A DNA stretch of 64,000 nt from Balanoglossus misakiensis (GCA_040954595.2 CM082578.2:3702831-3766830), one strand, 5' to 3'; positions 1,802 through 38,714 are shown, counted from the stretch's first letter. Numbers and translations: made by a program. The notes: generated by a model from the letters alone, not told the origin.

Positions 1802-2429
1802 CCTCAACTGATGTCAACCGTTTGTTTTACGTGCTTCAGATAAACCTGTAAGTTGAATCATTGCTTTTTAACAGAAGCATTTTACTGTAGTCATATCTTT
1901 ATTTTAGTCTACATTATAGGTCGCTGACCAGTTAAAACAAAATGTCCACGTCTCACTTTCGTGTCTCTCTGTACTCTGTACAATATATCTGGTTTGGTAG
2001 ATTTTCCGGATACCGAGATAAAGAAAACTGGAAGGTCACACAAACATTTCACAAATTGTCACATACTAGTAAAGATCCAAAACACAAAACACGTAAGCCC
2101 TCTTATTTTTAAGGATACTATTTGTTATAGGCAAAAGAAGGAGATGAAGTATAAGAACGCATTAAGTGTTTCAACATATCAAGATAATGAAAAGTAAAAG
2201 GTCATCCCAAAGTTAACCAAAAAATTGTCACAAATTGGGTCCCATACTGGTCCCAGCTTTCCTTCTGCCACTATTGGTCAGCGTAAAATTTAATGTGGTA
2301 AGGTGTCCGACAACATGAGTTGTTTCATCCCTCCAAATGCTAAGACCGAATCTGCCCTGGATGCTTCGATTTGTAAAAGTAGGTCAAAGTTCACCCAAAA
2401 TTTGCTGCACAATTTTTTGATGCCATACT

Positions 2430-3470
2430 GGTCCATGTCCAACTGAAACGAAACTGCTAGCTGTGTTGGTTAGTCTGGAATTAGGTATGTGCATAATTAA
2501 TGAGGTTAAGAAGGTGACACAGATTACCCCAAAATTTGGCTTTTCATTTTTGTCCCATGCCTTAAAAAGCCAAGGACGTATCTCCTGCCGATGCCAAGAT
2601 ATGGGAAAGCAGGTTAAAGGTCAGCTCAGGTCACCCTAAATTTGGGCAAAAGCTTGTGACTCCATATTGGTCCATGTTCAACTGAAACGAAACTGCTAGC
2701 TGTGTTGGTTAGCCTGGAATTAGGTATGTACATAATTAATGAGGTTAAGAAGGTGACACAGATTACCCCAAAATTAGGCTTTTCATTTTTGTCCCACCCC
2801 TTAAAAAGCCAAGGACGTATCTCCTGTGGATGCCAAGATATGGGAAAGCAGGTTAAAGGTCAGCTCAGGTCACCCTAAATTTGGGCAAAAGCTTGTGACT
2901 CCATATTGGTCCATGTTCAACTGAAACGAAACTGCTAGCTATGTTGGTTAGCCTGGAATTAGGTATGTGCATAATTAATGAGGTTAAGAAGGTGACACAG
3001 ATTACCCCAAAATTAGGCTTTTCATTTTTGTCCCACCCCTTAAAAAGCCAAGGACGTATCTCCTGTGAATGCCAAGATATGGGAAAGCAGGTTAAAGGTC
3101 AGCTCAGGTCACCCTAAATTTGGGCAAAAGCTTGTGACCCCATATTGGTCCATGTTCAACAAAAACCAGACCTCTAGTCCGTTTGGTTGGCCTGGAATCA
3201 GGTATGTGCAAAATTAATGAGGTTAAGAAGGTGTCACAGATGACCCAAAAATTTGGCTTTTCATTTTGATCCCATCCCTCCAAAGGACAAGGCTGTAGCT
3301 GCTGTTGGTACCGAGATATGGTAAAGAAGATTAAAGGTCACCTGATGTCATCCAAAATTTGGGCAAAAACTGTTGACCACATATTGGTCCATGTTCAACA
3401 AAAAAAACCCCCACCTCTAGCCCTATTGGTTCGCTTGGAATTATAATGGGCATAATTAATGGGGTAATGT
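2430..3470. repeat. 239-bp tandem repeat (about 4 copies), an older variant of the HINE internal repeat
   Basis: ggtccatgtYcaactgaaacgaaactgctagc recurs at about 2430, 2669 and 2909, with diverged copies at about 3147 and 3386. It is similar to the ~240-bp repeat inside the array units. Confidence 0.85.
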
Positions 3471-4584
3471 GTGAGACTCGGTCAGGTGTTCCATCCCTCC
3501 AAATGCTAAGTCTGTACCTGCAGTGGATGCCAAGATATAAGAAAGTAGGTCAAAGGTCACCTAAGGTCACCCAACATTTGGGCAAAGATTTTTGACCCCA
3601 TATTGGTCCATGTCCAACAAAATCCAAACCTCTAGCTCTAATGGTTCGCCTGTAATTAGGTATCTGCATATTTAATGAGGTCAGCAGGGGACAATGGGGT
3701 CATGAAAAGTAGCAAAATATTTTGATCACACACTAATCTTCATGCATCAAAAACGAAACTTATAGCCCTATTGGTTAGCCTGGAATTAGATATGCAGAAA
3801 AATGGTGCGTCAAATGTAGGTCAAAGGTCATTGCCAAAATTACCAAAATATTCATAGCTTATTCTTGGCATATGATGATTCATATCCATAAAAAGAATTT
3901 CTGTGCTATCAATTTTTAGGCTAGAAAGGGAATTTTTACTTTTTTATCGTTTTTCACAAAATCCAATATGGCCGCCATAATCTTCGACCAATCACATTCA
4001 CCTTCGCAAACTTGATAGACATCTGTTTAATGACCACACACACCAAATCTTGTGACTCAGTTATCTCCGGTTCTTGAGAAGAAGATTTTTGAAATTTTAC
4101 TAGGGTTTTTCGAAAATCCAATATGGCCGCCATAATCTTCGACCAATCACATTCACCTTCGCAAACTTGATAGACCTCAGTTTGGTGACCACATACCCCA
4201 AAGGGCGTGACTCGGTTATCGCCGGTTCTGGAGAAGAAGATTTTTGAAATTTTGACCAGATTTCAGAAAAACAACTGTAGCAAAAAAACTGCAACATTGA
4301 CAGCAAAATATCCAATTACAAAAATGATGGGCAGAAGGTACACTACCAGCACACCAAATCTGAAATAAATCTGACTTGTAGTTTCTGAGATCTGAGATTT
4401 GCATTTTTTCAGAAAATCCAATATGGCCGCCATGTCACGTGACTAATTAAAAATTCAAGAGTTCAATGCACAACTACCCATTGACCTTGACCACTGTAGC
4501 AAGTTTGAGAAGTGTACCTGCAGCGGTGTCTGAGATCTAGAGCGACAAAGAAATGACAGAAGAATAAAGAAAGAAGAAAGACAG

Positions 4585-4722
4585 AAAAACCCCAACGAAA
4601 CCAATAGGGCCCAAGCGCTGGTATGCGCTTGGGCCCTAAAGAAGAAAGAAGAAAGAAGGAAAGACAGAAAAACCCCAACGAAACCAATAGGGCCCAAGCG
4701 CTGGCTTGCGCTTGGGCCCTAA
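4585..4722 (-). repeat. Stack of 2 HINE 5'-terminal hairpin cassettes
   Basis: aaaaccccaacgaaaccaatagggcccaagc-loop-gcttgggccctaa x2, separated and followed by GAAA microsatellite remnants. Confidence 0.9.
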
Positions 4723-7700
4723 AGAAGGAAAGACAGATTAAAGCTGCAAGCAGCATTGTCCGGGCCCAAGCTCTATTATCTGATCAGATTATTAGATATG
4801 CACATAATTAATGAGTAGAAACATAATGCTGTGTTTTATCCCATGAACTATCAAGGTTATATATATGTTTGGTGTTGATATAGTGTTAAGTAGGTCAAAG
4901 GTCACCCAGAGGTCACCCACAATTTGGGCAGACAATTTTGACCAGTAGTGGTCCATGTCCAACAAAAACCAGACCTCTAGCCCTTTTGGTTAGCCCAGAA
5001 TTAGGTATGCACATAAATAATGAGTTAAGCAGGTGTCACTGGTGACCCAAAACTTTGACTTTTCATTATGGCCCCATACCTCCAAACGCCAAGGCTGTAT
5101 CTGCTGTGGATGTCGAGATATGCAAAAGTAGGTCAAAGGTCACCCGAGGTCACCCAACATTTGGGCAAAATATTTTGACCCCATACTGGTCCATGTATAA
5201 CAAAAACAAAACCTCTAGGTCTATTGGTTCATCATTAATTAGGAATGTGCATATTTAATGAGGTCAGCAGAGGTCAAAGGGGTCATGAAAAGTAGCAAAA
5301 TTTTTTGATCACATACAAATCCACATACATCAAAAACCAAACTTATAGCCCTATTGGTTAGCCTGGAATTAGATATGCAGAAAAATGATGCGTCAAAAGT
5401 AGGTCAAAGGTCATTGCCAAAATTACCAAAATATTTATAGCTTATTCTTGTCATATGATGATTCATATCCATAAAAAGAATTTCTGTGCTATCAATTTTT
5501 AGGCTAGAAACAGAATTTTTACTTTTTAATCGTTGTTCACAAAATCCAATATGGCCGCCAAAATCTTCGACCAATCACAATGATCTTCGCAAACTTGATA
5601 GACATCTGTTTAATGACCACACACACCAAATCTTGTGACTCGGTTATCGCCAGTTCTTGAGAAGAAGATTTTTGAAATTTTACTAGGGTTTTTCGAAAAT
5701 CCAATATGGCCGCCATAATCTTCCACCAATCACAATGATCTTCGCAAACTTGATAGACCTCAGTTTGGTGACCACATACCCCAAACCGCGTGACTCGGTT
5801 ATCGCCGGTTCTGGAGAAGAAGATTTTTGAAATTTTGACCAGATTTCAGAAAAACAACTGTAGCAAAAAAACTGCAACATTGACAGCAAAATATCCAATT
5901 ACAAAAATGATGGGTAGAAGGTAGACTACCTGCACACCAAGTTTGAAGTCGATCTGACTTGTAGTTTCTGAGATCTGAGATTTGCATTTTTTCAGAAAAT
6001 CTAATATGGCCGCCAGGTCACGTGACTAATTAAAAATTCAAGGGTTCAATGCACATCTACTCATTGACCTTGACCACTGTAGCAAGTTTGAGAAGTGTAC
6101 CTGCAGTGGTGTCTGAGATCTAGAGCGACAAAGAATTGACACAAGAATAAAGAAAGAAGAAAGAAGAAAGAAGGAAAGACAGATTAAAGCTGCGAGCAGC
6201 ATTGTCGGGCCCAAGCGCTGATCTTGAATTATATATGCACAGTATGAATGAGAAGAAACAGAATTTTCTATCGGATGTATTATCTCATGACATAACAAGG
6301 ATGTGTGTATTTTTGCTGCTGAAATAGGGTGAAGTAAGTCAAAGGTCACCTGAGGTCACCCAACATTTGGGCAATTTTTTTTACCCATACTGGTCCATGT
6401 CCAACAAAAACCAAAACTCTAGCTCTATTGGTTCGCCTGTAATTAGGTATGTGCATATTTAATGAGGTCAGCAGGTGTTACAGGTGACCCAAAAATGTGG
6501 CTTTACATTTTGGTCCCATCCTACCAAATGCCATGGCTGTATCTGCTCTGGATGCTGAGATATGCGAAAGTAGGTCAAAGGTCACCAGAGGTCACCCAAC
6601 ATTTGGGCAAAAAATGGTGATCCCATACTGGTCCATGTCCAACAAAAACCAAACCTCTAGCTCTATCGGTGCGCCTGTAATTAGCTATGCACATAATTAA
6701 TGAGGTCAGCAGAGGTCAAAAGGGTCATGAAAAGTAGCAAAATATTTTGATCACACACTAATCCACATTCATCAAAAACCAAACGTCTAGCCCTATAGGT
6801 TAGCCTGGAATTAGATATGCAGAAATAATAACGCGTGATAGGTAGGTCAAAGGTCATGTGAAAAATCGCCAAAAAATAGTAACATATTTTAGTCACATGA
6901 CGATTGATATCCATAAAAAGAATTTGTATGCTATCAATTTTTAGACTAGATAAAGGATTTTCAATTTTTCGCTGCTTTTTACAAAATCCAATATGGCCGC
7001 CATAATCTTTGACCAATCACAATGCTCTTTGCAAACATGATAGACATCAGTGTAGTGACCATACTCCCCGAATCTTGCGACTCAGTCATCGCCCGTTCTG
7101 GAGAAGAAGATTTTTGGAGTTTAACTATGGTTTTTCGAAAATCCAATATGGCCGCCATAATCTTCGACCAATCACAATGATCTTCGCAAACTTGATAGAC
7201 ATCAGTTAGGTGACCACATACCCTAAACCGCGTGTCTCGGTTATCATCGGTTCTGGAGAAGAAGATTTTTGAAATTTAAGCCAGATTTCAGAAAAAAAAT
7301 TGTAGCAAAAAAACTGCAACATTGACAGCAAAATTTCCAATTACAAAAATGATGAGTAGAAGGTAGTCTACCTGCATGCCAAATTTGAAGTCGATCTGAC
7401 TTGTAGTTTCTGAGATCTGAGATTTGCATTTTTTCAGAAAATCCAATATGGCCGCCAAGTCACGTGACTAATTAAGTATTCACAAATCACTGCACATCTA
7501 CTCATTGACCTTGACCACTGTAGCAAGTTTGAGCAGTGTACCTGCAGTAGTTTCTGAGATTTAGTTGGCCGAAGAATTGACAGGAGAATAAAGAAAGAAA
7601 GAAAGATTAAAGCTGCAAGCAGCATTGTCCTGGCCCAAGCTGTATTATCTGATCAGATTATTAGATATGCACATAATTAATGAGTAGAAACATAATGCTG

Positions 7701-9031
7701 TGTTTTATCCCATGAAATATCAAGGTTATATCTATGTTTGGTGTTGATATAGTGTTAAGTAGGTCAAAGGTCACCCAGAGGTCACCCACAATTTGGGCAG
7801 AAAATTTTGACCCATAGTGGTCCATGTCCAACAAAAACCAGACCTCTATCCCTTTTGGTTAGCCCGGAATTAGGTATGCACATAAATAATGAGTTAAGCA
7901 GGTGTCACAGGTGACCCAAAACTTTGGCTTTTCATTATGGCCCCATACCTCCAAACGCCAAGGCTGTATCTGCTGTGGATGTCGAGATATGCAAAAGTAG
8001 GTCAAAGGTCATCCGAGGTCACCCAACATTTGGGCAAAAAATTTGACCCAATACTGGTTCATGTCCAACAAAAACCAAACCTCTAGGTCTATTGGTTCAT
8101 CTGTAATTAGGTATGCACATATTTAATGAGGTCAGCAGAGGTCAAAGGGGTCATGAAAAGTAGCGAAATTTTTTGATCGCATACAAATCCACATACATCA
8201 AAAACCAAACTTATAGCCCTATTGGTTAGCCTGGAATTAGATATGCAGAAAAATGATGCGTCAAAAGTAGGTCAAAGGTCATTGTCAAAATTACCAAAAT
8301 ATTTACAGCTTATTCTTGGCATATGATGATTCATATCCACAAAAAGAATTTCTGTGCTATCAATTTTTAGGCTAGAAAGGGAATTTTTACTTTTTAATCG
8401 TTTTTCACAAAATCCAATATGGCCGCCATAATCTTCGACCAATCACATTCATCTTCGCAAACTTGATATAAATCTGTTTAATGACCACACACACCAAATC
8501 TTGTGACTCAGTTATCGCCGGTTCTTGAGAAGAAGATTTTTGAAATTTTACTAGGGTTTTTCGAAAATCCAATATGGCCGCCAAAATCTTCGACCAATCA
8601 CAATGATCTTCGCAAACTTGATAGACCTCAGTTTGGTGACCACATACCCCAAACCGCGTGACTCGGTTATCGCCGGTTCTGGAGAAGAAGATTTTTGAAA
8701 TTTTGACCAGATTTCAGAAAAACAACTGTAGCAAAAAAACTGCAACATTGACAGCATAATTTCCAATTACAAAAATGTTTGCCAGAAGGTAGTCTACCTG
8801 CACGCCAAATTTGAAGTCGATCTGACTTGTAGTTTCTGAGATCTGAGATTTGCATTTTTTCAGAAAATCCAAGATGGCCGCCAGGTCATGTGACTAATTA
8901 AAAATTCATGGGTTCAATGCACGACTACTCATTGACCTTGACCACTGTAGCAAGTTTGAGAACTGTACCTGCAGTGGTGTCTGAGATCTAGAGCGACAAA
9001 GAATTGACACAAGAATAAAGAAAGAAGAAAG

Positions 9032-9194
9032 AAAAACCCCAACGAAACCAATAGGGCCCAAGCGCTGGCTTGCGCTTGGGCCCTAAAAAACCCCAACGAA
9101 ACCAATAGGGCCCAAGCGCTGGTATGCGCTTGGGCCCTAAAAAACCCCAACGAAACCAATAGGGCCCAAGCGCTGGTATGCGCTTGGGCCCTAA
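9032..9194 (-). repeat. Stack of 3 HINE 5'-terminal hairpin cassettes
   Basis: Three abutting ~54-bp cassettes with loops ggctt, ggtat, ggtat. Confidence 0.9.
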
Positions 9195-12054
9195 TTAAAG
9201 CTGCAAGCAGCATTGTCGGGCCCAAGCGCTGATCTTGAATTATATATGCACAGTATGAATGAGAAGAAACATAATTTTCTATCGGGTGTATTATCTCATG
9301 ACATAACAAGGGCGTATGTATTTTTGCTGCTGAAATAGGGTAAAGTAGGTCAAAGGTCACCTGAGGTCATCCAACATTTGGGCAAAAATGTTTGACCCAT
9401 GCTGGGCCATGTCCAACAAAAACCAAAACTCTAGCTCTATTGGTTCGCGTGTAATTAGGTATGTGCATATTTAATGAGGTCAGCAGGTGTCACAGGTGAG
9501 CCAAAAATTTGGCTTTACATTTAGGTCCCATCCTGCCAAATGCCAAGGCTGTATCTGCTCTGGATGTTGAGATATGCGAAAGTAGGTCAAAGGTCACCAG
9601 AGGTCACCCAACATTTGGGCAAAAAATTTTGATCCCATACAGGTCCATGTCCATCAAAAACCAAACCTCTAGCTCTATTGGTTCGCCTGTAATTAGCTAT
9701 GCACATAATTAATGAGGTAAGCAGAGGTCAAAGGGGTCATGGAAAGTAGCAAAATATTTTGATCACACACTTATCCACATGCATCAAAAACCAAACATCT
9801 AGCCCTATAGGTTAGCCTGGAATTAGATATGCAGAAATAATAACATGTGAAAAGTAGGTCAAAGGTCATGTGAAAACTCGCCAAAAATTTGTAACATATT
9901 TTAGTCACATGACGATTGATATCCATACAAAGAATTTCTATGCTATCAATGTTTAGAGTAGAAAAAGGAATTTCAATTTTTCAATGCTTTTTACAAAATC
10001 CAATATGGCCGCCATAATCTTCGACCAATCACAATGTTCTTTGCAAACTTGATAGACATCAGTGTAGTGACCATACTCCCCGAATCTTGTGACTCAGTTA
10101 TCGCCCGTTCTGGAGAAGAAGATTTGGGGAGTTTTACTATGGTTTTTCGAAAATCCAATATGGCCGCCATAATCTTCGACCAATCACAATGATCTTCGCA
10201 AACTTGATAGACCTCAGTTAGGTGACCCCATACCCCAAACCGCGTGACTCTGTTATCGCCGGTTCTGGAGAAGAAGATTTTTGAAATTTTGACCAGATTT
10301 CAGAAAAACAACTGTAGCAAAAAAACTGCAACATTGACAGCAAAATATCCAATTACAAAAATGATGGGCAGAAGGTACACTACCAGCACGCCAAATCTGA
10401 AGTAAATCTGACTTGTAGTTTCTGAGATCTGAGATTTGCATTTTTTCAGAAAATCCAATATGGCCGCCATGTCACGTGACTAATTAAAAATTCATGGGTT
10501 CAATGCACGACTACTCATTGACCTTGACCACTGTAGCAAGTTTGAGAACTGTACCTGCAGCGGTGTCTGAGATCTAGAGCGATAAAAAATGGACAGGAGA
10601 ATAAAGAAAGAAAGAAAGAATTAAAGCTGCAAGCAGCATTGTCGGGCCCAAGCGCTGATCTTGAATTATATATGCACAGTATGAATGAGAAGAAACAGAA
10701 TTTTCTATCGGATGTATTATCTCATGACATAACAAGGATGTGTGTATTTTTGCTGCTGAAATAGGGTGAAGTAGGTCAAAGGTCACCTGAGGACACCCAA
10801 CATTTGGGCAATTTTTTTTTACCCATACTGGTCCATGTCCAACAAAAACCAAAACTCTAGCTCTATTGGTTCGCCTGTAATTAGGTATATGCATATTTAA
10901 TGAGGTCAGCAGGTGTCACAGGTGACCTTAAAATGTGGCTTTACATTTTGGTCCCATCCTACCAAATGCCATGGCTGTATCTGCTCTGGATGCTGAGATA
11001 TGCGAAAGTAGGTCAAAGGTCACCAGAGGTCACCCAACATTTGGGCAAAATTTTTTGACCCATACTGGTCCATGTCCAACAAAAACCAAACCTCTAGCTC
11101 TATTGGTTCGCCTGTAATTAGCTATGCACATAATTAATGAGGTCAGCAGAGGTCAAAGGGGTCATGAAAAGTAGCAAAATAGTTTGATCACACACTAATC
11201 CACATTCATCAAAAACCAAACGTCTAGCCCTATAGGTTAGCATGGAATTAGATATGCAGAAATAATAACGCGTGATAAGTAGGTCAAAGGTCATGTGAAA
11301 AATCGCCAAAAAATTGTAACATATTTTAGTCTCATGACGATTGATATCCATAAAAAGAATTTGTATGCTATCAATTTTTAGACTAGAAAAAGGAATTTCA
11401 ATTTTTCACTGCTTTTTACAAAATCCAATATGGCCGCCATAATCTTCGACCAATCACAATGCTCTTTGCAAACTTGATAGACATCAGTGTAGTGACCATA
11501 CTCCCCGAATCTTGCGACTCAGTCATCGCCCGTTCTGGAGAAGAAGATTTTTGGAGTTTAACTATGGTTTTTCGAAAATCCAATATGGCCGCCATAATCT
11601 TCGACCAATCACAATGATCTTCACAAACTTGATAGACATCAGTTAGGTGACCACATATCCTAAACCGCGTGTCTCGGTTATGACCGGTTCTGGAGAAGAA
11701 GATTTTTGAAATTTAAGCCAGATTTCAGAAAAAAAATTGTAGCAAAAAAACTGCAACATTGACAGCAAAATTTCCAATTACAAAAATGATGGGTAGAAGG
11801 TAGTCTACCTGCATGCCAAATTTGAAGTCGATCTGACTTGTAGTTTCTGAGATCTGAGATTTGCATTTTTTCAGAAAATCCAATATGGCCGCCAGGTCAC
11901 GTGACTAATTAAGTATTCACAAATCACTGCACATCTACTCATTGACCTTGACCACTGTAGCAAGTTTGAGCAGTGTACCTGCAGTAGTTTCTGAGATTTA
12001 GTTGGCCGAAGAATTGACACAAGAATAAAGAAAGAAAGAAAGAAAGAAAGAAAG

Positions 12055-12215
12055 AAAAATTCCAACGAAACCAATAGGGCCCAAGCGCTTGCGCGCGCTT
12101 GGGCCCTAAAAACCCCAACGAAACCAATAGGGCCCAAGCGCTTGCTTGCGCTTGGGCCCTAAAAACCCCAACGAAACCAATAGGGCCCAAGCGCTGGTAT
12201 GCGCTTGGGCCCTAA
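12055..12215 (-). repeat. Stack of 3 HINE 5'-terminal hairpin cassettes
   Basis: Three abutting cassettes with three different loop variants. Confidence 0.9.
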
Positions 12216-13289
12216 TTAAAGCTGCAAGCAGCGTTGGCGGGCACAAGCGGTTCCCATGGTAAACAGCAAATGCCAAGGCTGTATCTGCTGTGGATACCAA
12301 GATATGGGAAAGTAGGTCAAAGGTCACCTGAGGTCACCCCAAATTTGGGCAAAAAAATCGGAACCCATACTAGTCTAGGTCCAACAAAAACCAGACCCCT
12401 AGCTTTATTGGTTCGCCTAGAATTAGGTATGCGCATAATTAATGAGGTCTAGTGTAAGGCATAAAATTTTGACCCCAGAGTGGGCCATGTCCAACTAAAA
12501 CCAGACCTCTAGCCCTATTGGTTAGCCTGGAATTATATATGCAGAAAAATGATGTTTCAGAAATAGGTCAAGGGTCATTGCCAAAATTACCAAAATATTT
12601 GTGTTGGTACCCATGTCCACAAAATTCATGACTGTGGTGCTTTGACAAGAGGAGGTATGGGGAATATGCATATATAATTAGTTGTTTTAAAACCGGGTCA
12701 AAGGTCATGTGAAAATTGCCCCGAAAAATTGTGACAACTTCCGGTCATATGATGACTCATATCCGAAAAAAGAATTTTTATGCTGTCAACATTTTGGCTA
12801 CAAAACGGAATTTTCATTTTTCAATGGTTTTCCGAAAATCCAACATGGCCGCCATAATGATCGACCAATCACAGTGCGCTTCGCAAACTTGATAGACATA
12901 GGTTAGGTGACCACATACCCTGAATCCCGTGACTCGGCAATCGCTGGTTCTGGAGAAGAAGATTTTTAAAGTTTTAAGTAGTGATTCAGAAAAACAATTG
13001 TAGCAAAAAAACTTTGTGTGACGTCATGATTTCAATGGGCTAAAATGATGGACAGAAGGTAGGCTACCTGCACACCAAATTTGAACTCGATCAGCCCAGT
13101 GGTTTTTGAGAAGGACTCGTTTAACGATTTTCAGGAAATCCAATATGGCCGCCAGGTCACGTGACTAATTAAATATTCACGAGCCACTGCACGTCTACCC
13201 ATTGGCCCCTACCACCCTACCAAGTTTCAGCCCCCTAGGTGCTGCGGTTTTCCAGATGTACAATGACATATTTCTCGGAAGAAGAATAA
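12216..13289 (-). mobile_element. Body of a divergent HINE subfamily (GGGCACAAGC subTIR)
   Basis: Starts ttaaagctgcaagcagcgttggcgggcacaagc and is clearly diverged from its neighbours. Its matching 5' cassette (gggggcacaagc...gcttgtgccccc) is at 31143-31200. Confidence 0.75.
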
Positions 13290-21402: not shown

Positions 21403-21561
21403 AAAAACCCCAACGAAACCAATAGGGCCCAAGCGCTGGTATGCGCTTGGGCCCTAAAAACCCCAACGAAACCAATAGGGCCCAAGCGCTGGCTTGCGCT
21501 TGGGCCCTAAAAATTCCAACGAAACCAATAGGGCCCAAGCCTGGCTTGGCTTGGGCCCTAA
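21403..21561 (-). repeat. Stack of 3 HINE 5'-terminal hairpin cassettes
   Basis: Three abutting cassettes; the last has stem-loop agggcccaagc-ctggcttg-gcttgggccct. Confidence 0.9.
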
Positions 21562-24500: not shown

Positions 24501-27500
24501 GATATGCACATAATTAATGAGTAGAGACATAATGCTGTGTCTTATGCCATGAAATATCAAGGTTATATCTATGTTTTGTGGTGATATAGTGTTAAGTAGG
24601 TCAAAGGTCACCCAGAGGTCAACCACAATTTGGGCAGAAAATTTTGACCCATAGTGGTCCATGTCCAACAAAAACCAGACCTCTAGCCCTTTTGGTTATC
24701 CCGGAATTAGGTATGCACATAAATAATGAGTTAAGCACGTGTCACAGGTGACCCAAAACTTTGGCTTTTCATTATGGCCCCATACCTCCAAACGCCAAGA
24801 CTGTATCTGCCGTAGATGTCGAGATATGCAAAAGTAGGTCAAAGGTCACCCGAGGTCACCCAACATTTGGGCAAAATATTTTGACCCCATACTGGTCCAT
24901 TTATAACAAAAACAAAACCTCTAGGTCTATTGGTTCATCATTAATTAGGTATGCGCATATTTAATGAGGTCACCAGAGGTCAAAGGGGTCATGAAAAGTA
25001 GCAAAATTTTTTGATCACATACAAATCCACATACATCAAAAACCAAACTTATAGCCCTATTGGTTAGCCTGGAATTAGATATGCAGAAAAATGATGCGTC
25101 AAAAGTAGGTCAAAGGTCATTGCCAAAATTACCAAAATATTTATAGCTTATTCTTGTCATATGATGTTTCATATCCGTAAAAAGAATTTCTGTGCTATCA
25201 ATTTTTAGGCTAGAAAGGGAATTTTTACTTTTTAATTGTTTTTCACAAAATCCAATATGGCCGCCATAATCTTTGACCAATCACATTCCTCTTCGCAAAC
25301 TTGATAGACATCTGTTTAATGACCACACACATCAAATCTTGTGACTCAGTTATTGCCGGTTCTTGAGAAGAAGATTTTTGAAATTTTACTAGGTTTTTTT
25401 TAAAATCCAATATGGCCGCCATAATCTTTGACCAATCACAATGATCTTCGCAAACTTGATAGACCTCAGCTTGGTGACCACATACCCCAAACCGCGTGAC
25501 TCGGTTATCGCCGGTTCTGGAGAAGAAGATTTTTGAAATTTTGACCAGATTTCAGAAAAACAACTGTAGCAAAAAAACTGCAACATTGACAGCAAAATAT
25601 CCAATTACAAAAATGATGGGCAGAAGGTAGACTACCTGCACACCAAATTTGAAGTCTATCTGACTTGTAGTTTCTGAGATCTGAGATTTGCATTTTTTCA
25701 GAAAATCCAATATGGCCGCCATGTCACGTGACTAATTAAAAATTCAAGAGTTCAATGCACGACTACCCATTGACCTTGACCATTGTAGCAAGTTTGAGAA
25801 GTGTACCTGCAGCGGTGTCTGAGATCTAGAGCGACAAAGAAATGACAGAAGAATAAAGAAAGAAAGACAGATTAAAGCTGCAAGCAGCATTGTCCGGGCC
25901 CAAGCTCTATTATCTGATCTGATTATTAGATATGCACATAATTAATGAGTACAAACATAATGCTGTGTTTTATCCCATGAAATATCAAGGTTATATCTAG
26001 GTTTGGTGTTGACATAGTATTAAGTAGGTCAAAGGTCACCCAGAGGTCACCAATTATTTGGGCAGAATATTTTGACCCATAGTGGTCTATGTCCAACAAA
26101 AACCAGATCTCTAGCCCTTTTGGTTAGCCCGGAATTAGTTATGCACATAAATAATGCGTAAAGCAGGTGTCACAGGTGACCCAAAACTTTGGCTTTTCAT
26201 TATGGCCCCATACCTCCAAATGCCAAGGCTGTACCTGCTTTGGATGCCGATATATGCAAAAGTAGGTCAAAGGTCATCTGAGGTCATCCAAAGTTTGGGC
26301 AGAAAATTTTGACCCATAGTGGTCCATGTCCAACAAAAACCAGACATCTAGCCCTTTTGGTTAGCCCGGAATTTGGTATGCACATAAATAATGAGTAAAG
26401 CAGGTGTCACAGGTGACCCAAAACTTTGGCTTTTCATTATGGCCCCATACCTCCAAACGCCAAGGCTGTATCTGGTGTGGATGTCGAGATATGCAAAAGT
26501 AGGTCAAAGGTCACCCAACATTTGGGCAGAAAATTTTGACCCATAGTGGTCCATGTCCAACAAAAACCAGACCTCTAGCCATTTTGGTTAGCCCGGAATT
26601 AGGTATGCACATAAATAATGAGTAAAGCAGGTGTCACAGGTGACCCAAAACTTTGGCTTTTCATTATGGCCCCATACCTCCAAACGCCAAGGCTGTATCT
26701 GGTGTGGATGTCGAGATATGCAAAAGTAGGTCAAAGGTCACCCGAGGTCACCCAACATTTGGGCAAAATATTTTGACCCCATACTGGTCCATGTATAACA
26801 AAAACAAAACCTCTAGGTCTATTGGTTCATCTGTAATTAGGTATATGCATATTTAATGAGGTCAGCAGAGGTCAAAGGGGTCGTGAAAAGTAGCAAAATT
26901 TTTTGATCACATACAAATCCACATACATCAAAAACCAAACTAATAGCCCTATTGGTTAGCCTGGAATTAGATATGCAGAAAAATGATGCGTCAAAAGTAG
27001 GTCAAAGGTCATTGCCAAAATTACCAAAATATTTATAGGTTATTCTTGTCATATGATGATTCATATCCATAAAAAGAATTTCTGTGCTATCAATTTTTAG
27101 GCTAGAAAAGGAATTTTTACTTTTTAATCGTTTTTCACAAAATCCAATATGGCCGCCATAATCTTCGACCAATCACATTCCTCTTCGCAAACTTGATAGA
27201 CATCTGTTTATTGACCACACACACCGAATCTTGTGACTCAGTTATCGCCGGTTCTTGAGTAGAAGATTTTTGAAATTTTACTAGGGTTTTTCGAAAATCC
27301 AATATGGCCGCCATAATCTTCGACCAATCACAATGATCTTCGCAAACTTGATAGACCTCAGTTTGGTGACCACATATCCCAAACCGCGTGACTCGGTTAT
27401 CGTCGGTTCTGGAGAAGAAGATTTTTGAAATTTTGACCAGATTTCAGAAAAACAACTGTAGCAAAAAAACTGCAACATTGACAGCAAAATATCCAATTAC

Positions 27501-30500
27501 AAAAATGATGGGCAGAAGGTACACTACCCGCACACCAAATCTGAAGTAAATCTGACTTGTAGTTTCTGAGATCTGAGATTTGCATTTTTTCAGAAAATCC
27601 AATATGGCCGCCATGTCACGTGACTAATTAAAAATTCAAGAGTTCAATGCACGACTACCCATTGACCTTGACCACTGTAGCAAGTTTTAGAAGTGTACCT
27701 GCAGCGGTGTCTGAGATCTAGAGCGACAAAGAAATGACACAAGAAAAAAGAAAGAAAGACAGAATTAAAGCTGCAAGCAGCATTGTCCGGGCCCAAGCTC
27801 TATTATCTGATCTGATTATTAGATATGCACATAATTAATGAGTAGAAACATAATGCTGTGTTTTATCCCATGAAATATCAAGATTATATCTATGTTTAGT
27901 GCTGATATAGTGTTAAGTAGGTCAGAGGTCACCCACAGTTTGGGCAGAAAATTTTGACCCATAGTGGTCCATGTCCAACAAAAACCAGACCTCTAGCCCT
28001 TTTGGTTAGCTCGGAATCAGGTATGCACATAAATAATGAGTTATGCAGGCGTCACAGGTGACCCAAAACTTTGGCTTTTCATTATGGCCCCATACCTCCA
28101 AACGTCAAGGCTGTATCTGTTGTGGATGTCGAGATATGCAAAAGTAGGTCAAAGGTCACCCGAGGTCACCCAACATTTGGGCAAAATATTTTGACCCCAT
28201 ACTGATCCATGTCCAGAAAAAAACAAACCTCTAGGTCATTTGGTTCATCTGTAATTAGGTATGCGCATATTTAATGAGGTCAGCAGAGGTCAAAGGGGTC
28301 ATGAAAAGTAGCAAAAATTTTTGATCACATACAAAACCACATACATCAAAAACCAAACTTATAGCCCTATTGGTTAGCCTGGAATTAGATATGCAGAAAA
28401 ATGATGCGTCAAAAGTAGGTCAAAGGTCATTGCCAAAATTACCAAAATATTTATAGCTTATTCTTGTCATATGATGATTCATATCCATAAAAAGAATTTC
28501 TGTGCTATCAATTTTTAGGCTAGAAACAGAATTTTTACTTTTTAATCGTTTTTCACAAAATCCAATATGGCCGCCATAATCTTCGACCAATCACATTCCT
28601 CTTTGCAAACTTGATAGACATCTGTTGAATGACCACACACACAAAATCTTGTGACTCGGTTATCGCCGGTTCTCGAGAAGAAGATTTTTGAAATTTTACT
28701 AGGGTTTTTCGAAAATCCAATATGGCCGCCATAATCTTCGACCAATCACAATGATCTTCGCAAACTTGATAGACATCCGTTAGGTGACCACATACCCCAA
28801 ACCCCGTGTCTCGGTTATCACCGGTTCTGGAGAAGAAGATTTTTGAAATTTAAGCCAGATTTCAGAAAAAAAATTGTAGCAAAAAAACTGCAACATTGAC
28901 AGCATAATTTCCAATTACAAAAATGTTTGACAGAAGGTAGTCTACCTGCACGCCAAATTTGAAGTCGATCTGACTTGTAGTTTCTGAGATCTGAGATTTG
29001 CATTTTTTCAGAAAATCCAAGATGGCCGCCAGGTCATGTGACTAATTAAAAATTCATGGGTTCAATGCACGACTACTCATTGACCTTGACCACTGTAGCA
29101 AGTTTGAGAACTGTACCTGCAGTGGTGTCTGAGATCTAGAGCGACAAAGAATTGACAGAAGAATAAAGAAAGAAGAAAGAAAGAAGGAAAGACAGAATTA
29201 AAGCTGCAAGCAGCATTGTCCGGGCCCAAGCTTTATTATCTGATCTGATTATTAGATATGCACATAATTAATGAGTAGAAACATAATGCTGTGTTTTAGC
29301 AAATGAAATATCAAGGTTATATCTATGTTTGGTGCTGATATAGTGTTAAGTAGGTCAAAGGTCATCCAGAGGTCAGCCACAATTTGGGCAGAAAATTTTG
29401 ACCCATAGTGGTCCATGTCCATCAAAAACCAGACCTCTAGCCCTTTTGGTTAGCCCGGAATTAGGTATGCACATAAATAATGCGTAAAGCAGGTGTCACA
29501 GGTGAGCCAAAACTTTGGCTTTTCATTATGGCCCCATACCTCCAAATGCCCAGACTGTACCTGCTTTGGATGTCGAGATATGCAAAAATAGGTCAAAGGT
29601 CATCTGAGGTCACCCAAAATTTGGGCAGAAAATTTTGACCCAAAGTAGTCCATGTCCAACAAAAACCAGACCTCTAGCCCTTTTGGTTAGCCCGGAATTA
29701 GGTATGCACATAAATAATGAGTTAAGCAGGTGTCACAGGTGACCCAAAACTTTGGCTTTTCATTATGGCCCCATACCTCCAAACGCCAAGGCTGTATCTG
29801 CTGTGGATGTCGAGATATGCAAAAGTAGGTCAAAGGTCACCCGAGGTCATCCAACATTTGGGCAAAATATTTTGACCCCATACTGATCCATGTCCAGAAA
29901 AAAACAAACCTCTAGGTCATTTGGTTCATCTGTAATTAGGTATGCGCATATTTAATGAGGTCAGCAGAGGTCAAAGGGGTCATGAAAAGTAGCAAAAATT
30001 TTTGATCACATACAAAACCACATACATCAAAAACCAAACTTATAGCCCTATTGGTTAGCCTGGAATTAGATATGCAGAAAAATGATGCGTCAAAAGTAGG
30101 TCAAAGGTCATTGCCAAAATTACCAAAATATTTATAGCTTATTCTTGTCATATGATGATTCATATCCATAAAAAGAATTTCTGTGCTATCAATTTTTAGG
30201 CTAGAAACAGAATTTTTACTTTTTAATCGTTGTTCACAAAATCCAATATGGCCGCCAAAATCTTCGACCAATCACAATGATCTTCGCAAACTTGATAGAC
30301 ATCTGTTTAATGACCACACACACCAAATCTTGTGACTCGGTTATCGCCGGTTCTTGAGAAGAAGATTTTTGAAATTTTACTAGGTTTTTTCGAAAATCCA
30401 ATATGGCCGCCATAATCTTCGACCAATCACAATGATCTTCGCAAACTTGATAGACCTCAGTTTGGTGACCACATACCCCAAACCGCGTGACTCGGTTATC

Positions 30501-30868
30501 GCCGGTTCTGGAGAAGAAGATTTTTGAAATTTTGACCAGATTTCAGAAAAACAACTGTAGCAAAAAAACTGCAACATTGACAGCAAAATATCCAATTACA
30601 AAAATGATGGGTAGAAGGTAGACTACCTGCACACCAAGTTTGAAGTCGATCTGACTTGTAGTTTCTGAGATCTGAGATTTGCATTTTTTCAGAAAATCTA
30701 ATATGGCCGCCAGGTCACGTGACTAATTAAAAATTCAAGGGTTCAATGCACATCTACTCATTGACCTTGACCACTGTAGCAAGTTTCAGAAGTGTACCTG
30801 CAGTGGTGTCTGAGATCTAGAGCGACAAAGAATTGACACAAGAATAAAGAAAGAAGAAAGAAAGAAAG

Positions 30869-31271
30869 AAAAACCCCAACGAAACCAATAGGGCCCAAGC
30901 GCTGGCTTGCGCTTGGGCCCTAAAAACCCCAACGAAACCAATAGGGCCCAAGCGCTGGTATGCGCTTGGGCCCTAAAAACCCCAACGAAACCAATAGGGC
31001 CCAAGCGCTGGTATGCGCTTGGGCCCTAAAAAACCCCAACGAAACCAATAGGGCCCAAGCGCTGGTATGCGCTTGGGCCCTAAAAAACCCCAACGAAACC
31101 AATAGGGCCCAAGCGCTGGCTTGCGCTTGGGCCCTAATAAAGAAAAATTCCAACAATACCAATGGGGGCACAAGCCGCCTGAGGGCGCTTGTGCCCCCAA
31201 AAATTCCAACAATAACAATGGGGGCAAAAGCCGCCTGAGGGCGCTTGTGCCCCCAAAAATTCCAACAATAA
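30869..31271 (-). repeat. Stack of 5 GGGCCC-type, 2 GGGCAC-type and 1 split HINE 5' cassettes
   Basis: Five ~53-bp cassettes, then two aaattccaacaataMcaatgggggcaMaagccgcctgagggcgcttgtgccccc cassettes, then the half cassette aaaaattccaacaata. Confidence 0.9.
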
Positions 31272-34200
31272 TTAAAGCTGCAAGCAGCATTGTCCGGGCC
31301 CAAGCTCTATTATCTGATCTGATTATTAGATATGCACATAATTAATGAGTAGAAACATAATGCTGTGTTTTATCCCATGAAATATCAAGGTTATATCTAT
31401 GTTTGGTGTTGATATAGTGTTAAGCAGGTCAAACGTCACCCAGAGGTCACCCACAATTTGGGCAGAAAATTTTGACCCATAGTGGTCCATGTCCAACAAA
31501 AACCAAAACTCTAGCTCTATTGGTTTGCCTGTAATTAGGTATGTGCATATTTAATGAGGTCAGCAGGTGTCACTGGTGACCCAAAAATTTGGCTTTTCAT
31601 TATGGCCCCATACCTCAAAACGCCAAGGCTGTATCTGCTTTGGATACCGAGAAATGCGAAAGTAGGTCAAAGGTCACCTGAGGTCACCCAAAATTTGGGC
31701 AAATTATTTTGACCCCATACTGATCAATGTCCAAAAAAGACCAAACCTCTAGGTCTATTGGTTCATCTGTAATTAGGTATGCGCATATTTAATGAGGTCA
31801 GCAGAGGTCAAAGGGGTCATGAAAAGTAGCAAAATTTTTTGATCACATACAAATCCACATACATCAAAAACCAAACTTATAGCCCTATTGGTTAGCCTGG
31901 AATTAAATATGCAGAAAATTGATGCGTCAAAAGTAGGTCAAAGGTCATTGCCAAAATTACCAAAATATTTATAGCTTATTCTTGTTATATGATGATTCAT
32001 ATCCATTAAAAGAATTTCTGTGCTATAAATTTTTAGGCTAGAAAGGGAATTTTTACTTTTTAATCGTTTTTCACAAAATCCAATATGGCCGCCATAATCT
32101 TCGACCAATCACATTCCTCTTTGTAAACTTGATAGACATCTGTTGAATGACCACACACACAAAATCTTGTGATTCAGTTATCGACGGTTCTCGAGAAGAA
32201 GATTTTTGAAATTTTACTAAGGTTTTTCGAAAATCCAATATGGCCGCCATAATCTTCGACCAATCACAATGATCTTCGCAAACTTGATAGACATCAGTTA
32301 GGTGACCACATACCCCAAACCCCGTGTCTCGGTTATCACCGGTTCTGGAGAAGAAGATTTTTGAAATTTAAGCCAGATTTCAGAAAAAAAATTGTAGCAA
32401 AAAAACTGCAACATTGACAGCATAATTTCCAATTACAAAAATGTTTGACAGAAGGTGGTCTACCTGCACGCCAAATTTGAAGTCAATCTGACTTGTAGTT
32501 TCTGAGATCTGAGATTTGCATTTTTTCAGAAAATCCAAGATGGCCGCCAGGTCATGTGACTAATTAAAAATTCATGGGGTCAATGCACGACTACTCATTG
32601 ACCTTGACCACTGTAGCAAGTTTGAGAACTGTACCTGCAGTGGTGTCTGAGATCTAGAGCGACAAAGAAATGACACAAGAATAAAGAAAGAAAGAAAGAA
32701 AGAATTAAAGCTGCAAGCAGCATTGTCGGGCCCAAGCGCTGATCTCGAATTATATATGCACAGTATGAATGAGAAGAAACAGAATTTTCTATCTGGTGTA
32801 TTATCTCATGACATAACAAGGACGTGTGTATTTTTGCTGCTGAAATAGGGTGAAGTAGGTCAAAGGTCACCTGAGGTCACCCAACATTTGGGCAAAATTT
32901 CTTGACCCATACTGGTCCATGTCCAACAAAAACCAAAACTCTAGCTCTATTTGTTCGCCTGTAATTAGGTATGTGCATGTTTAATGAGGTCAGCAGGTGT
33001 CACAGGTGACCCAAAAATGTGGCTTTACATTTTGGTCCCATCCTGCAAAATGCCATGGCTGTATCTGCTCTGGATGCTGAGATATGCGAAAGTAGGTCAA
33101 AGGTCACCCAAAATTTGGGCAACAAATTTTGACCCCATATTGGTCCATGTCCAACAAAAACCAAACCTCTAGCTCTATTGGTTCGCCTGTAATTAGCTAT
33201 GCACATAAATAATGAGGTCAGCAGAGGTCAGAGGGGTCATGAAAAGTAGCAAAATATTTTGATCACACACAAATCCACATGCATCAAAAACCAAATGTCT
33301 AGCCCTATAGGTTAGCCTGGAAATAGATATGCAGAAATAATAATGTGTGAAAAGTAGGTCAAAGGTCATGTGAAAAATCGACAAAAATTTGTAACATATT
33401 TTAGTCACATGACGATTGATATCCATAAAAAGAATTTCTATGCTATCAATTTTTAGACTAGAAAAAGAAATTTCAATTTTTCACTGCTTTTTACAAAATC
33501 CAATATGGCCGCCATATTTTTCGACCAATCACAATGCTCTTTGCAAACTTGATAGACATCAGTGTAGTGACCATACTCCCCGAATCTTGCGACTCAGTTA
33601 TTGCCCGTTCTGGAGAAAAAGATTTTTGCAGTTTTACTATGGTTTTTCGAAAATCCAATATGGCCGCCATAATCTTCGACCAATCACAATGCTTCTTATC
33701 AAACTTGATAAACATCAGTTAGGTGACCACATACCCCAAATCCCGTGACTCGGTTATCGCCGGTTCTTGAGAAGAAGATTTTTGAAGTTTTAGTTAGATT
33801 TTTTGGAAATCCAATATGGCGGCCAAAGTCACGTGACCGCTCGAGATTTTATTATCAAACTTTGTAGGGCAGAGGCCATGTGTACTATGTACCAAATTTG
33901 AACTTGATTTGCCTTGTAGTTTTTGAGAAGAAGCCATTTACATTTTTTCAGAAAATCCAATATGGCCGCCAGGTCACGTGACTAATTAAGTATTCACAAG
34001 TCACTGCACATCTACTCATTGACCTTGACCACTGTAGCAAGTTTGAGCAGTGTACCTGCAGTAGTTTCAGAGATTTAGTTGGCCGAAGAAATGACACAAG
34101 AATAAAGAAAGAATTAAAGCTGCAAGCAGCATTGTCCGGGCCCAAGCTCTATTATCTGATCTGATTATTAAATATGCACATAATTAATGAGTAGAAACAT

Positions 34201-37200
34201 AATGCTGTGTTTTATCCCATGAAATATCATGGTTATATCTATGTTTAGTGCTGATAAAGTGTTAAGTAGGTCAAAGGTCACCCAGAGGTCACCCATAATT
34301 TGGGCAGAAAATTTTGACCCATAGTGGTCCATGTCCAACAAAAACCAGACCTATAGCACTTTTGGTTAGCCCGGAATTAAGTATGCACATAAATAATGAG
34401 TTAAGCAGGTGTCACAGGTGACCCACAACTTTGGCTTTTCATTATGGCCCCATACCTCCAAACGCCAAGGCTGTATCTGCTGTGGATGCTGATATTTGCA
34501 AAAGTAGGTCAAAGGTCACCAGAGGTCACCCAACATTTGGGTAAAAATTTTTGACCCCATACTAGTCCTGTCCAACAAAAACAAAACCTCTAGGTCTATT
34601 GGTTCGCCTGTAATTAGCTATGCACATAATTAATGAGGTCAGCAGGGGTCAAAGGGGTCGTGAAAAGTAGCAAAAAATTTTGATCACACACTTATCCACA
34701 TACATCAAAAACCAAACTTATAGCCCTATTGGTTAGCCTGGAATTAGATATGCAGAAAAATGATGCGTCAAAAGTAGGTCAAAGGTCATTGCCAAAATTA
34801 CCAAAATATTTATAGCATATTGTAGTCATATGATGATCCATATCCATAAAAAGAATTTCTGTGCTATCAATTTTTAGGCTAGAAAGGGAATTTTTACTTT
34901 TTAATCGTTTTTCACAAAATCCAATATGGCCGCCATAATCTTCGACCAATCACATTCACCTTCGCAAACTTGATAGACATCTGGTGAATGACCACACACA
35001 CAAAATCTTGTGACTCGGTTATCACCGGTTCTCGAGAAGAAGATTTTTGAAATTTTACTAGGGTTTTTCGAAAATCCAATATGGCCGCCATAATCTTCGA
35101 CCAATCACAATGATCTTCGCAAACTTGATAGACATTAGTTAGGTGACCACATACCCCAAACCTCGTGTCTCGGTTATCACCGGTTCTAGAGAAGAAGATT
35201 TTTGAAATTTAAGCCAGATTTCAGAAAAAAAATTGTAGCAAAAAAACTGCAACATTGACAGCATAATTTCCAATTACAAAAATGTTTGACAGAAGGTAGT
35301 CTACCTGCACGCCAAATTTGAAGTCGATCTGACTTGTAGATTCTGAGATCTGAGATTTGCATTTTTTCAGAAAATCCAAGATGGCCGCCAGGTCATGTGA
35401 CTAATTAAAAATTCATGGGTTCAATGCACGACTACTCATTGACCTTGACCACTGTAGCAAGTTTGAGAACTGTACCTGCAGTGGTGTCTGAGATCTAGAG
35501 CGACAAAGAAATGACAGAAGAATAAAGAAAGATTAAAGCTGCAAGCAGCATTGTCCGGGCCCAAGCTCTATTATCTGATCTGATTATTAGATATGGACAT
35601 AAGTAATGAGTAGAAACATAATGCTGTGTTTTATCCCATGAAATATCAAGGTTATATCTATGTTTGGTGCTGATATAGTGTTAAGTAGGTCAGAGGTCAC
35701 CCAGAGGTCACCCACAGTTTGGGCAGAAAATTTTGACCCATAGTGGTCCATGTCCGACAAAAACCAGACCTCTAGCCCTTTTGGTTAGCCCGGAATTAGG
35801 TATGCACATAAATAATGAGTTAAGCAGGTGTCACAGGTGACCCAAAACTTTGGCTTTTCATTATGGCCCCATACCTCCAAACACCAAGGCTGTATCTGCT
35901 GTGGATGTCGAGATATGCAAAAGTAGGTCAAAGGTCACCCGAGGTCACCCAACATTTGGGAAAATTTTTTGACCCAATACTGGTCCATGTCCAACAGAAA
36001 CCAAGCCTCTAGGTCTATTGGTTCATCTGTAATTAGGTATGCACATATTTAATGAGGTCAGCAGAGGTCAAAGGGGTCATGAAAAGTACCAAAATTTTTT
36101 GATCACATACAAATCCACATACATCAAAAACCAAACTTATAGCCCTATTGGTTAGCCTGGAATTAGATATGCAGAAAATTGATGCGTCAAAAGTAGGTCA
36201 AAGGTCATTGCCAAAATTACCAAAATATTTATAGCTTATTCTTGTTATATGATGATTCATATCCATAAAAAAAATTTCTGTGCTATTGATTTTTAGGCTA
36301 GAAAGGGAATTTTTACTTTTTAATCGTTTTTCACAAAATCCAATATGGCCGCCATAATCTTCGACCAATCACATTCCTCTTCGCAAACTTGATAGACATC
36401 TGTTGAATGACCACACACACAAAATCTTGTGACTCGGTTATCGCCGGTTCTCGAGAAGAAGATTTTTGAAATTTTACTAGGGTTTTTCGAAAATCCAATA
36501 TGGCCGCCATAATCTTCGACCAATCACAATGATCTTCGCAAACTTGATAGACATCAGTTAGGTGACCACATACCCCAAACCCCATGTCTCGGTTATCACC
36601 GGTTCTGGAGAAGAAGATTTTTGAAATTTAAGCCAGATTTCAGAAAAAAAATTGTAGCAAAAAAACTGCAACATTGACAGCATAATTTCCATTACAAAAA
36701 TATTTGACAGAAGGTAGTCTACCTGCACGCCAAATTTGAAGTCGATCTGACTTGTAGTTTCTGAGATCTGAGATTTGCATTTTTTCAGAAAATCCAAGAT
36801 GGCCGCCAGGTCATGTGACTAATTAAAAATTCATGGGTTCAATGCACGACTACTCATTGACCTTGACCACTGTAGCAAGTTTGAGAACTGTACCTGCAGT
36901 GGTGTCTGAGATCTAGAGCGACAAAGAAATGACAGAAGAATAAAGAAAGAAAGAAAGAATTAAAGCTGCAAGCAGCATTGTCCGGGCCCAAGCTCTATTA
37001 TCTGATCTGATTATTAGATATGCACATAATTAATGAGTAGAAACAAAATGCTGTGTTTTATCCCATGAAATATCAAGGTTATATCTATGTTTAGTGCTGA
37101 TATAGTGTTAAGTAGGTCAAAGGTCACCCAGAGGTCACCCACAATTTGGGCAGAAAATTTTGACCCATAGTGGTCCATGTCCAACAAAAACCAGACCTCT

Positions 37201-38391
37201 AGCCCTTTTGGTTAGCCCGGAATTAGGTATGCACATAAATAATGAGTTAAGCAGGTGTCACAGGTGACCCAAAACTTTGGCTTTTCATTATGGCCCCATA
37301 CCTCCAAACGCCAAGGCTGTATCTGGTGTGGATGTCGAGATATGCAAAAGTAGGTCAAAGGTCACCCGAGGTCACCCAACATTTGGGCAAAATATTTTGA
37401 CCCCATACTGGTCCATGTATAACAAAAACAAAACCTCTAGGTCTATTGGTTCATCATTAATTAGGTATGCGCATATTTAATGAGGTCAGCAGAGGTCAAA
37501 GGGGTCATGAAAAGTAGCAAAATTTTTTGATCACATACAAATCCACATACATCAAAAACCAAACTTATAGCCCTATTGGTTAGCCTGGAATTAGATATGC
37601 AGAAAAATGATTTGTCAAAAGTAGGTCAAAGGTCATTGCCAAAATTTCCAAAATATTTATAGCTTATTCTTGTCAAATGATGATTCATATCCATAAAAAG
37701 AATTTCTGTGCTATCAATTTTTAGGCTAGAAAAGGAATTTTTACTTTTTAATCGTTTTTCACAAAATCCAATATGGCCGCCATAATCTTTGACCAATCAC
37801 ATTCCCCTTCGCAAACTTGATAGACATCTGTTTAATGACCACACACACCAAATCATGTGACTCGGTTATCGCCGGTTCTTGAGAAGAAGATTTTTGAAAT
37901 TTTACTAGGGTTTTTCGAAAAATCCAATATGGCCGCCAATATGTTCGACCAATCACAATGATCTTCGCAAACTTGATAGACATCAGTTAGGTGACCACAT
38001 ACACCAAACCCTGTGTCTCGGTTATCACTGGTTCTGGAGAAGAAGATTTTTGAAATTTAAGCCAGATTTCAGAAAAAAAATTGTAGCAAAAAACTGCAAC
38101 TTTGTCAGCATAATTTCCAATTACAAAAATAATGGACAGAGGGTAGTCTACCAGCATGCCAAATTTGAAGTCAATCTGACTTGTAGTTTCTGAGATCTGA
38201 GATTTGCATTTTTTCAGAAAATCCAAGATGGCCGCCAGGTCACGTGACTAATTTAAAATTCAAGGGTTCAATGCACGACTACTCATTGACCTTGACCACT
38301 GTAGCAAGTTTCAGAAGTGTACCTGCAGCGGTGTCTGAGATCTCGTGGGTCAAAGAATTGACACAAGAATAAAGAAAGAAAGAAAGAAAGT

Positions 38392-38714
38392 AAAATTCCA
38401 ACGAAACCAATACGGGCCCAAGCCTGGCTTGGCTTGGGCCCGTAAAAACCCCAACGAAACCAATAGGGCCCAAGCGCTGGTATGCGCTTGGGCCCTAAAG
38501 AAAGAAAGACAGAAAAACCCCAACGAAACCAATAGGGCCCAAGCGCTGGTATGCGCTTGGGCCCTAAAAATTCCAACGAAACCAATAGGGCCCAAGCGCT
38601 TGTGCGCGCTTGGGCCCTAAAAACCCCAACGAAACCAATAGGGCCCAAGCGCTGGTATGCGCTTGGGCCCTAACAATGGGGGCACAAGCCGCCTGAGGGC
38701 GCTTGTGCCCCCAA
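38392..38714 (-). repeat. Stack of 5 HINE 5' cassettes plus the other half of the split cassette
   Basis: Five cassettes followed by acaatgggggcacaagccgcctgagggcgcttgtgccccc. Confidence 0.9.

Follow-up and report, generated by a model that had tools for sequence, protein, structure and literature searches.

Organization of the repeat block

The window, i.e., the whole stretch of 64,000 nucleotides of Balanoglossus misakiensis DNA that was analysed (GCA_040954595.2 CM082578.2:3702831-3766830), contains a 36-kb repeat block made of 24 copies of a small non-coding element, all in the same orientation (minus strand). A motif scan located 23 element 3' ends, here termed heads (4737, 6183, 7606, 9194, 10620, 12215, 13289, 14387, 15493, 16726, 17845, 19973, 21586, 23004, 24443, 25871, 27764, 29197, 31271, 32704, 34113, 35532 and 36959), and no head on the opposite strand. 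It also located 24 ends of 5'-hairpin cassettes, 21 of type 1 and three of type 2, which are stacked at 4585-4721 (2 cassettes), 9032-9193 (3), 12055-12214 (3), 21403-21560 (3), 30869-31270 (7.5) and 38392-38713 (5.5). Directly behind the microsatellite of a body, with no cassette intervening, sit 18 of the 23 heads; the others follow cassettes plus leftover microsatellite (two), abut a cassette (two) or lie within one (one). Up to eight bodies are chained via their microsatellites, and there is a five-deep side nest. The inventory of the first-pass annotation (23 heads, a headless leftmost body and 24 cassettes in stacks of 2, 3, 3, 3, 7.5 and 5.5) proved exact in its counts, and its statement that most bodies run from their microsatellite into the next body without a hairpin applies to the 18 heads just mentioned. 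The parts of the block are:

2326..4584, minus strand: leftmost, headless body, likely chimeric, with a diverged left part and a type-1 right part carrying a microsatellite
4585..4721, minus strand: stack of two type-1 cassettes with microsatellite between them, the first belonging to the leftmost body, the second without a body
4737..9193, minus strand: three nested elements (heads 4737, 6183 and 7606), closed by the three-cassette stack at 9032-9193
7606-9085, minus strand: innermost, intact element of this nest
9194..12161, minus strand: two nested elements (heads 9194 and 10620) abutting the preceding 5' end
10620-12108, minus strand: innermost, intact element of this nest
12161..12214, minus strand: orphan type-1 cassette, its own body absent on the left
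12215..13288, minus strand: the sole type-2 body, with a subterminal repeat that matches the type-2 cassettes
13289..31136, minus strand: insert within the type-2 microsatellite, with 12 type-1 bodies (13289 to 29197) and only 8 cassettes
21403-21560 and 30869-31136, minus strand: cassettes of this insert
19973-21456 and 29197-30922, minus strand: intact innermost elements of this insert
31143..31270, minus strand: type-2 cassettes, two of them complete and one represented by its inner half; a body is missing for two of these three
31271..38672, minus strand: balanced five-deep nest (heads 31271, 32704, 34113, 35532 and 36959) inside the third type-2 cassette
38392-38672, minus strand: cassettes of the five-deep nest
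36959-38444, minus strand: innermost, intact element of the five-deep nest
38673..38713, minus strand: outer half of the split type-2 cassette and outermost 5' end of the block

The cassette that closes the type-2 body is most likely the one at 31143-31199. For the leftmost body the family alignment begins at about 2326, and fainter decay may reach about 2180; its diverged left part holds an internal 239-bp tandem array.

Other repeats lie to the right of the block. A MITE-like element with perfect 55-nt inverted ends (38720-39194) begins 6 nt from the outermost 5' end of the block. It is followed by an LTR retroelement (41788-45992), which lies within an element with 103-nt inverted ends (40761-46189); the terminal repeats of the retroelement are identical over a stretch of 176 nt, and its ORFs are gag-like (zinc knuckle, aspartyl protease, PNMA, HhH). 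Two un-nested plus-strand copies of a second DINE-1-like family, read by eye at about 47097-48550 and about 48884-49395, have a 5' hairpin, a GTAT microsatellite and a common 3' motif. Further to the right lie a 246-bp tandem array (51173-52444; 5.2 copies, 96% matches) and a foldback element with long inverted arms of 18-bp units (55938-56716).

Anatomy and classification of the element

Intact elements are 1480-1726 bp long. Their bodies are non-coding (the block contains no ORF of 150 or more amino acids), with internal repeats of 155 bp and of 237-239 bp and a microsatellite beside the 5' end. Over the 5'-proximal 950 bp the type-1 bodies are 81-98% identical, the type-2 body shares about 66-71% identity with the others, and most bodies have a mosaic composition, with subfamilies changing from one part to the next. 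Two pairs of non-adjacent bodies (4737/29197 and 6183/10620) are 97-98% identical overall.

The 5' end begins with T. An asymmetric inverted repeat of 10-13 bp starts 1-2 nt from the 5' end and ends 23-24 nt from the 3' end, and one variant of it is shared by the type-2 head and the three type-2 cassettes. In all three cassettes folded, the 5' hairpin, which involves the 5' repeat, is far more stable than shuffled sequences (z -5.8 to -6.6). A 12-nt palindrome-like 3' motif was found in 23 of 23 heads (motif scan, at most two mismatches); the 3' hairpin folds in two of three tested and is weak compared with shuffles (z +0.7 to +1.5 in all three). Insertions lack a target-site duplication, and a split cassette is restored exactly when its insert is removed; it is on this split cassette that the assignment of element boundaries rests.

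Judged by sequence features, these ends fit Helitron2/HLE2 elements of the HINE type. Helitron2 (Bao and Jurka 2013, PMC3627910), which equals HLE2 (Li et al. 2024, PMC11417382), is characterized in the accessible text by a 5' T, an asymmetric inverted repeat of 10-13 bp, a 5' hairpin, a 3' palindrome, the absence of target duplication and insertion at TTTT^T/C or T^T (PMC3627910), and HINE/DINE-1 elements are non-autonomous Helentrons according to the accessible part of Thomas et al. (2014, PMC4067079). Like HINE/DINE-1 (PMC4067079), Cg_HINE of oyster (PMC7492417) and DTC84 of clam (PMC3879986), as far as the accessible passages describe them, the element combines subterminal repeats and a 5' inverted repeat with a microsatellite near one end, internal tandem repeats, a 3' palindrome-like motif and a T-rich target. 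The HINE/DINE-1-type layout without target duplication proposed in the first-pass annotation therefore agrees in its termini, microsatellite and central repeats, with a 3' hairpin that is only weakly stable. The family may belong either with Helentrons, whose autonomous partner encodes a Rep-helicase fused to an AP endonuclease, or with Helitron2 elements that lack the endonuclease. Positions 1-42000 of the window gave no Rfam match. A search for an autonomous partner found no Helitron domain in the 61 of 73 ORFs scanned from related metagenome loci (the 12 left out came from one bacterial-like chance hit). The terminal motifs of the family did not occur in the supplement text of PMC4067079 and PMC11417382, a search that may miss PDF or figure content.

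Relatives at other loci

The head pattern was found at 59 metagenome loci, apparently host DNA, which are not independent because most come from three similarly named contig series; their elements share only the last 31-39 nt with those of the window. Among the 59 related heads (one bacterial-like chance match dropped), seven abut a 5' end and six follow a microsatellite, three of the latter (L031, L056 and L059) lying behind a body of the same family; the other 46 have other, A-rich flanks. One locus (L003) carries two stacked cassettes, and the three complete solitary copies (L005, L023 and L043) have one cassette each. As the same junction types recur in these relatives, the self-insertion behaviour is not peculiar to the locus studied here. 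Short-read contigs of one sample indicated a very high copy number and contained one head with a non-self flank as well as further variants of the cassette-to-head (end-to-end) junction. There was no exact match to the cassette motif in metagenome contigs and none to the head motif in viral contigs.

Evidence for nesting

Nesting of copies inside one another is well supported. The clearest case is the insert 31271-38672: its excision (five bodies and five cassettes) restores the interrupted type-2 cassette exactly, removal of its elements from the innermost outwards restores five of five empty sites, including a cut in the middle of a microsatellite and the split cassette, and its pairing is identical in all 36 best parses. 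For the block as a whole, strict last-in-first-out excision restored 14 of 20 empty sites, compared with a mean of 8.1 after shuffling (p=0.001). Such p-values are optimistic, because the rule for a valid junction was written after the junctions had been viewed and permutation within single stacks gave weak results (p=0.086 and 0.067; three stacks uninformative). The best non-crossing parse that allows unpaired units contains 19 pairs (null mean 15.5; 1 of 2000 shuffles reaches 19), three of which lacked testable flanks and were accepted in data and null alike. In addition, a rare cassette subtype pairs with the subtype of body to which it is attached in the intact copy 10620-12108. Private differences are fewer in innermost bodies than in the others (median 0.64 versus 0.93%, p=0.017; 5 versus 17 bodies), and the host was older than its guest in 11 of 16 untied pairs, an age gradient that is not significant (p=0.21).

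The claim that copies inserted in the same orientation just inside the 5' hairpin of a resident copy is supported by the restored split cassette and by complementary flanks at distant points. The check that accompanied it, iterative excision, succeeded in part: 14 of 20 sites closed correctly under strict pairing, and an intact element was not regenerated at every step.

Target site and probable self-targeting

We put the probability at about 85% that the block was built by repeated insertion into the T-run and microsatellite of a resident copy, 53-90 nt inside its 5' hairpin, and was later remodelled. This reading draws on the terminal anatomy, the lack of target duplication, the cut positions and the complementary flanks at distant opening and closing points. 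At 19 opening points, some of which lie mid-microsatellite, the cut five-base A-run between cassette and microsatellite retains just 0 or 1 base on the body side; at 13 closing points it retains just 4 or 5 on the cassette side. In the stack 30869-31082 the opening order 1, 1, 0, 0 meets the closing order 4, 4, 5, 5. Of the 16 empty sites chosen, 12 are TTTT^T/C on the element strand, three T^T and one T^C; the TTTT^Y count is in part a product of the junction rule. TTTT^T/C is also the target reported for Helitron-1N1_CRe, a Helitron2, in the accessible text of PMC3627910.

Each body holds about 20 TTTT^Y sites on the same strand and 15 on the opposite strand, none of which has been used. A profile built from the 20-nt flanks of 48 solitary relatives at other metagenome loci (11 of 59 loci were left out: one chance hit, nine self-associated, one duplicate) gave top rank among the 32-44 TTTT^Y sites to the one located 53 nt inward from the 5' end in three of four intact copies, so a landing pad of its own is likely part of each copy. 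In the fourth intact copy (36959) the T-run at that site is mutated, and this copy is un-invaded. The mutation is a base change within 38388-38396, which breaks the preferred T-run of the innermost element of the right nest; no guest is present there, and the broken T-run may be the reason why this nest stopped growing.

The 5'-proximal sites take only 55-82% of the profile weight in three copies, yet the bodies are uninterrupted elsewhere, so sequence preference alone may not suffice and may be reinforced through tethering by the hairpin. A stronger version of this idea keeps the same nesting and lets an enzyme tethered at the resident 5' hairpin or subterminal repeat do most of the targeting, the nearest T-run on either side being joined. 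It would account for the finding that all 23 heads sit in a microsatellite, in a cassette or against a cassette and none lies inside a body despite the many TTTT^Y sites there, for the one insertion inside a cassette and the two that abut a hairpin, and for the seven of 59 heads at related loci that abut a 5' end. However, the profile, which uses sequence only, already puts the used site first in three of four copies, and, read as nested insertions, the abutting sites in the window are likewise flanked by a T-run on the 5' side; we regard tethering as the main cause of targeting as possible but doubtful.

Departures from a clean bracket order

The notion that bodies act as opening and cassettes as closing brackets holds for the inner levels and fails for the block as one clean string of 24 and 24. 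The running depth drops to -2 at 12214, and strict pairing leaves two bodies unclosed, fails at 6 of 20 sites, assigns type-2 cassettes to type-1 bodies and produces two body-cassette subtype mismatches (bodies 6183 and 17845). Strict last-in-first-out order was accordingly rejected as a full description of the block on the basis of these six failures and the negative depth. The type-2 microsatellite, split between 13288 and 31137, encloses 12 bodies and only 8 cassettes. Four bodies and five cassettes are left without a partner in each of the 36 best parses, one of the cassettes being that of the headless leftmost body, and the apparent balance of 24 with 24 consists of four surplus interior bodies plus four orphan outer cassettes. 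Serial insertion alone is therefore insufficient, and deletion or composite transposition probably acted as well; of the proposed growth by serial self-targeted transposition, the self-insertion stands and its role as sole process does not.

The leftmost body is 77-79% identical to type-1 bodies in its left part and 92-95% in its right 950 bp, as expected if recombination had fused an old outer to a young inner body and removed the bodies between them. The surplus bodies could stem from loss of cassettes from a 53-bp tandem stack or from composite copying, two processes that a single locus cannot separate. A candidate composite unit is 14387-21560, with five bodies and three cassettes: when its outer flanks are joined, the resulting microsatellite matches that of body 4737 without a difference over 44 nt, and the subtype of its outer cassette is the one that goes with body 17845, as in copy 36959.

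It is conceivable that a few large steps account for most of the block, composite units of several bodies or cassettes being copied in from nests elsewhere, instead of about 23 single insertions at this site. The flanks to the left of 14387 and to the right of 21560, which join into a microsatellite and imply a unit of five bodies and three cassettes, would fit such growth, and composite copying has been proposed for the Helitrons of Fusarium (PMC5148889) and maize (PMC3288121) in the accessible text of those papers. Yet no multi-body block is repeated within the window, and loss of cassettes from a 53-bp tandem stack would give an identical sequence; we consider growth mainly by large steps unlikely.

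That slippage and unequal crossover duplicated or deleted bodies and cassettes independently, in a macrosatellite or rolling-circle concatemer, is very improbable. The bodies are indeed mosaics of subfamilies, surplus bodies and cassettes exist, and the adjacent bodies 13289 and 14387 are mutual best matches with a common deletion. Such a process would nevertheless leave unexplained the split cassette with its balanced insert and the flanks that complement each other across 7-18 kb. Identity between adjacent bodies does not exceed that after shuffling (91.4 versus 91.1%, p=0.27), there was no signal of duplicated multi-body blocks within the window (p=0.53; both tests with 23 bodies, the type-2 body left out), and subfamilies are mixed at the two end-to-end junctions. 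These are only 2 of 23 junctions, unlike the complete head-to-tail units of a macrosatellite. Local tandem or block duplication was rejected as the main process on the two p-values, and the earlier exclusion of a rolling-circle concatemer or unequal-crossover satellite agrees with the absence of extra similarity between neighbours and with the flanks that are complementary at a distance. As the main process slippage and unequal crossover are largely refuted, but they may be the source of the unpaired units.

An assembly artefact, i.e., high-copy repeats collapsed or mis-joined, is extremely improbable: the family has a very high copy number (summed contig depth 20,000-213,000 in run X1), no short-read contig of one sample spans the block and the runs contain at most 55% of the sampled words, but the closest bodies differ by at least 2%, mis-joins are not expected to yield base-exact complementary flanks at distant sites, and identical junction types occur in unrelated contigs.

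Discussion

Under growth by repeated self-insertion followed by remodelling, a postulated RepHel enzyme would act in trans and join the copy after TTTT where a T-rich stretch follows. The best such site of an element would be the T5 run between cassette and microsatellite, the strand asymmetry of which would set the orientation of the guest. Every insertion would split the site of the host and supply a fresh one, with the result that a chain of bodies grows on one side and a pile of cassettes on the other. T-run left over between stacked cassettes would explain the two copies joined directly to a 5' end. The four cassette-less bodies and four body-less cassettes would have arisen by recombination between direct repeats, proposed because the leftmost body looks chimeric, and/or by composite copying from other nests.

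The principle of self-insertion is already in print. In FoHeli of Fusarium oxysporum (Chellapan et al. 2016, PMC5148889), a Helitron2-type element whose first 31-85 nt are repeated, the multiple 5' termini were explained by self-insertion near the 5' end and subsequent composite copying; according to the accessible text, several short 5' ends there belong to one body and the nested intermediate is hypothetical. Unlike FoHeli as described there, the block retains both bodies and ends, with up to eight bodies chained and flanks that can be tested. In maize (Dong et al. 2011, PMC3288121), surplus termini arise when nested insertion is succeeded by composite transposition, but the accessible text concerns canonical Helitron1 ends, mostly surplus 3' termini and shallow nesting, unlike the block. 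The autonomous Xenopus HLE2 HelenXT233 has two left termini in direct repeat (PMC11417382), and for Helitron2/HLE2 the accessible text describes at most two left termini and no deep nests that keep bodies and ends; no coding partner was seen here. Clustering of copies has been noted for HINE-type elements and ascribed to terminator bypass or neighbouring insertion (PMC4067079, PMC7492417, PMC3879986); nesting in the element's own microsatellite, as seen here, is not described in those passages. Two further papers were set aside as precedents, since their accessible text concerns telomere-capping Helitrons (PMC13085455) and composite capture (PMC4224331). No report of a deep bracket-structured HINE nest was found in the open-access literature, a scope that leaves out most subscription journals and Repbase. 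The novelty suggested by the first-pass annotation accordingly shrinks with respect to the principle and persists with respect to depth: what is new here is the depth of the nest, the retention of bodies together with ends, and an explanation of the targeting at the level of sequence.

The block displays the nested intermediate that earlier papers assumed for multi-ended Helitrons, and it suggests a role, open to testing, for the microsatellite that these elements carry. The bracket order provides a base-exact relative chronology of subfamilies and reads out both the choice of target and which end stops replication. Repeat pipelines will mis-annotate such blocks as satellites or fragments. We tentatively suggest, as a generalization that may well fail, that the microsatellite and T-run of HINE/DINE-1-type elements are a self-carried landing pad by which they home into their own kind across animals, forming bracket blocks of 30-50 kb that pass for macrosatellites, and that multi-body units with only the innermost cassette record copying from the 3' end to the first 5' hairpin. 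If true, this record of where copying starts and stops would settle the disputed direction of Helitron2 replication.
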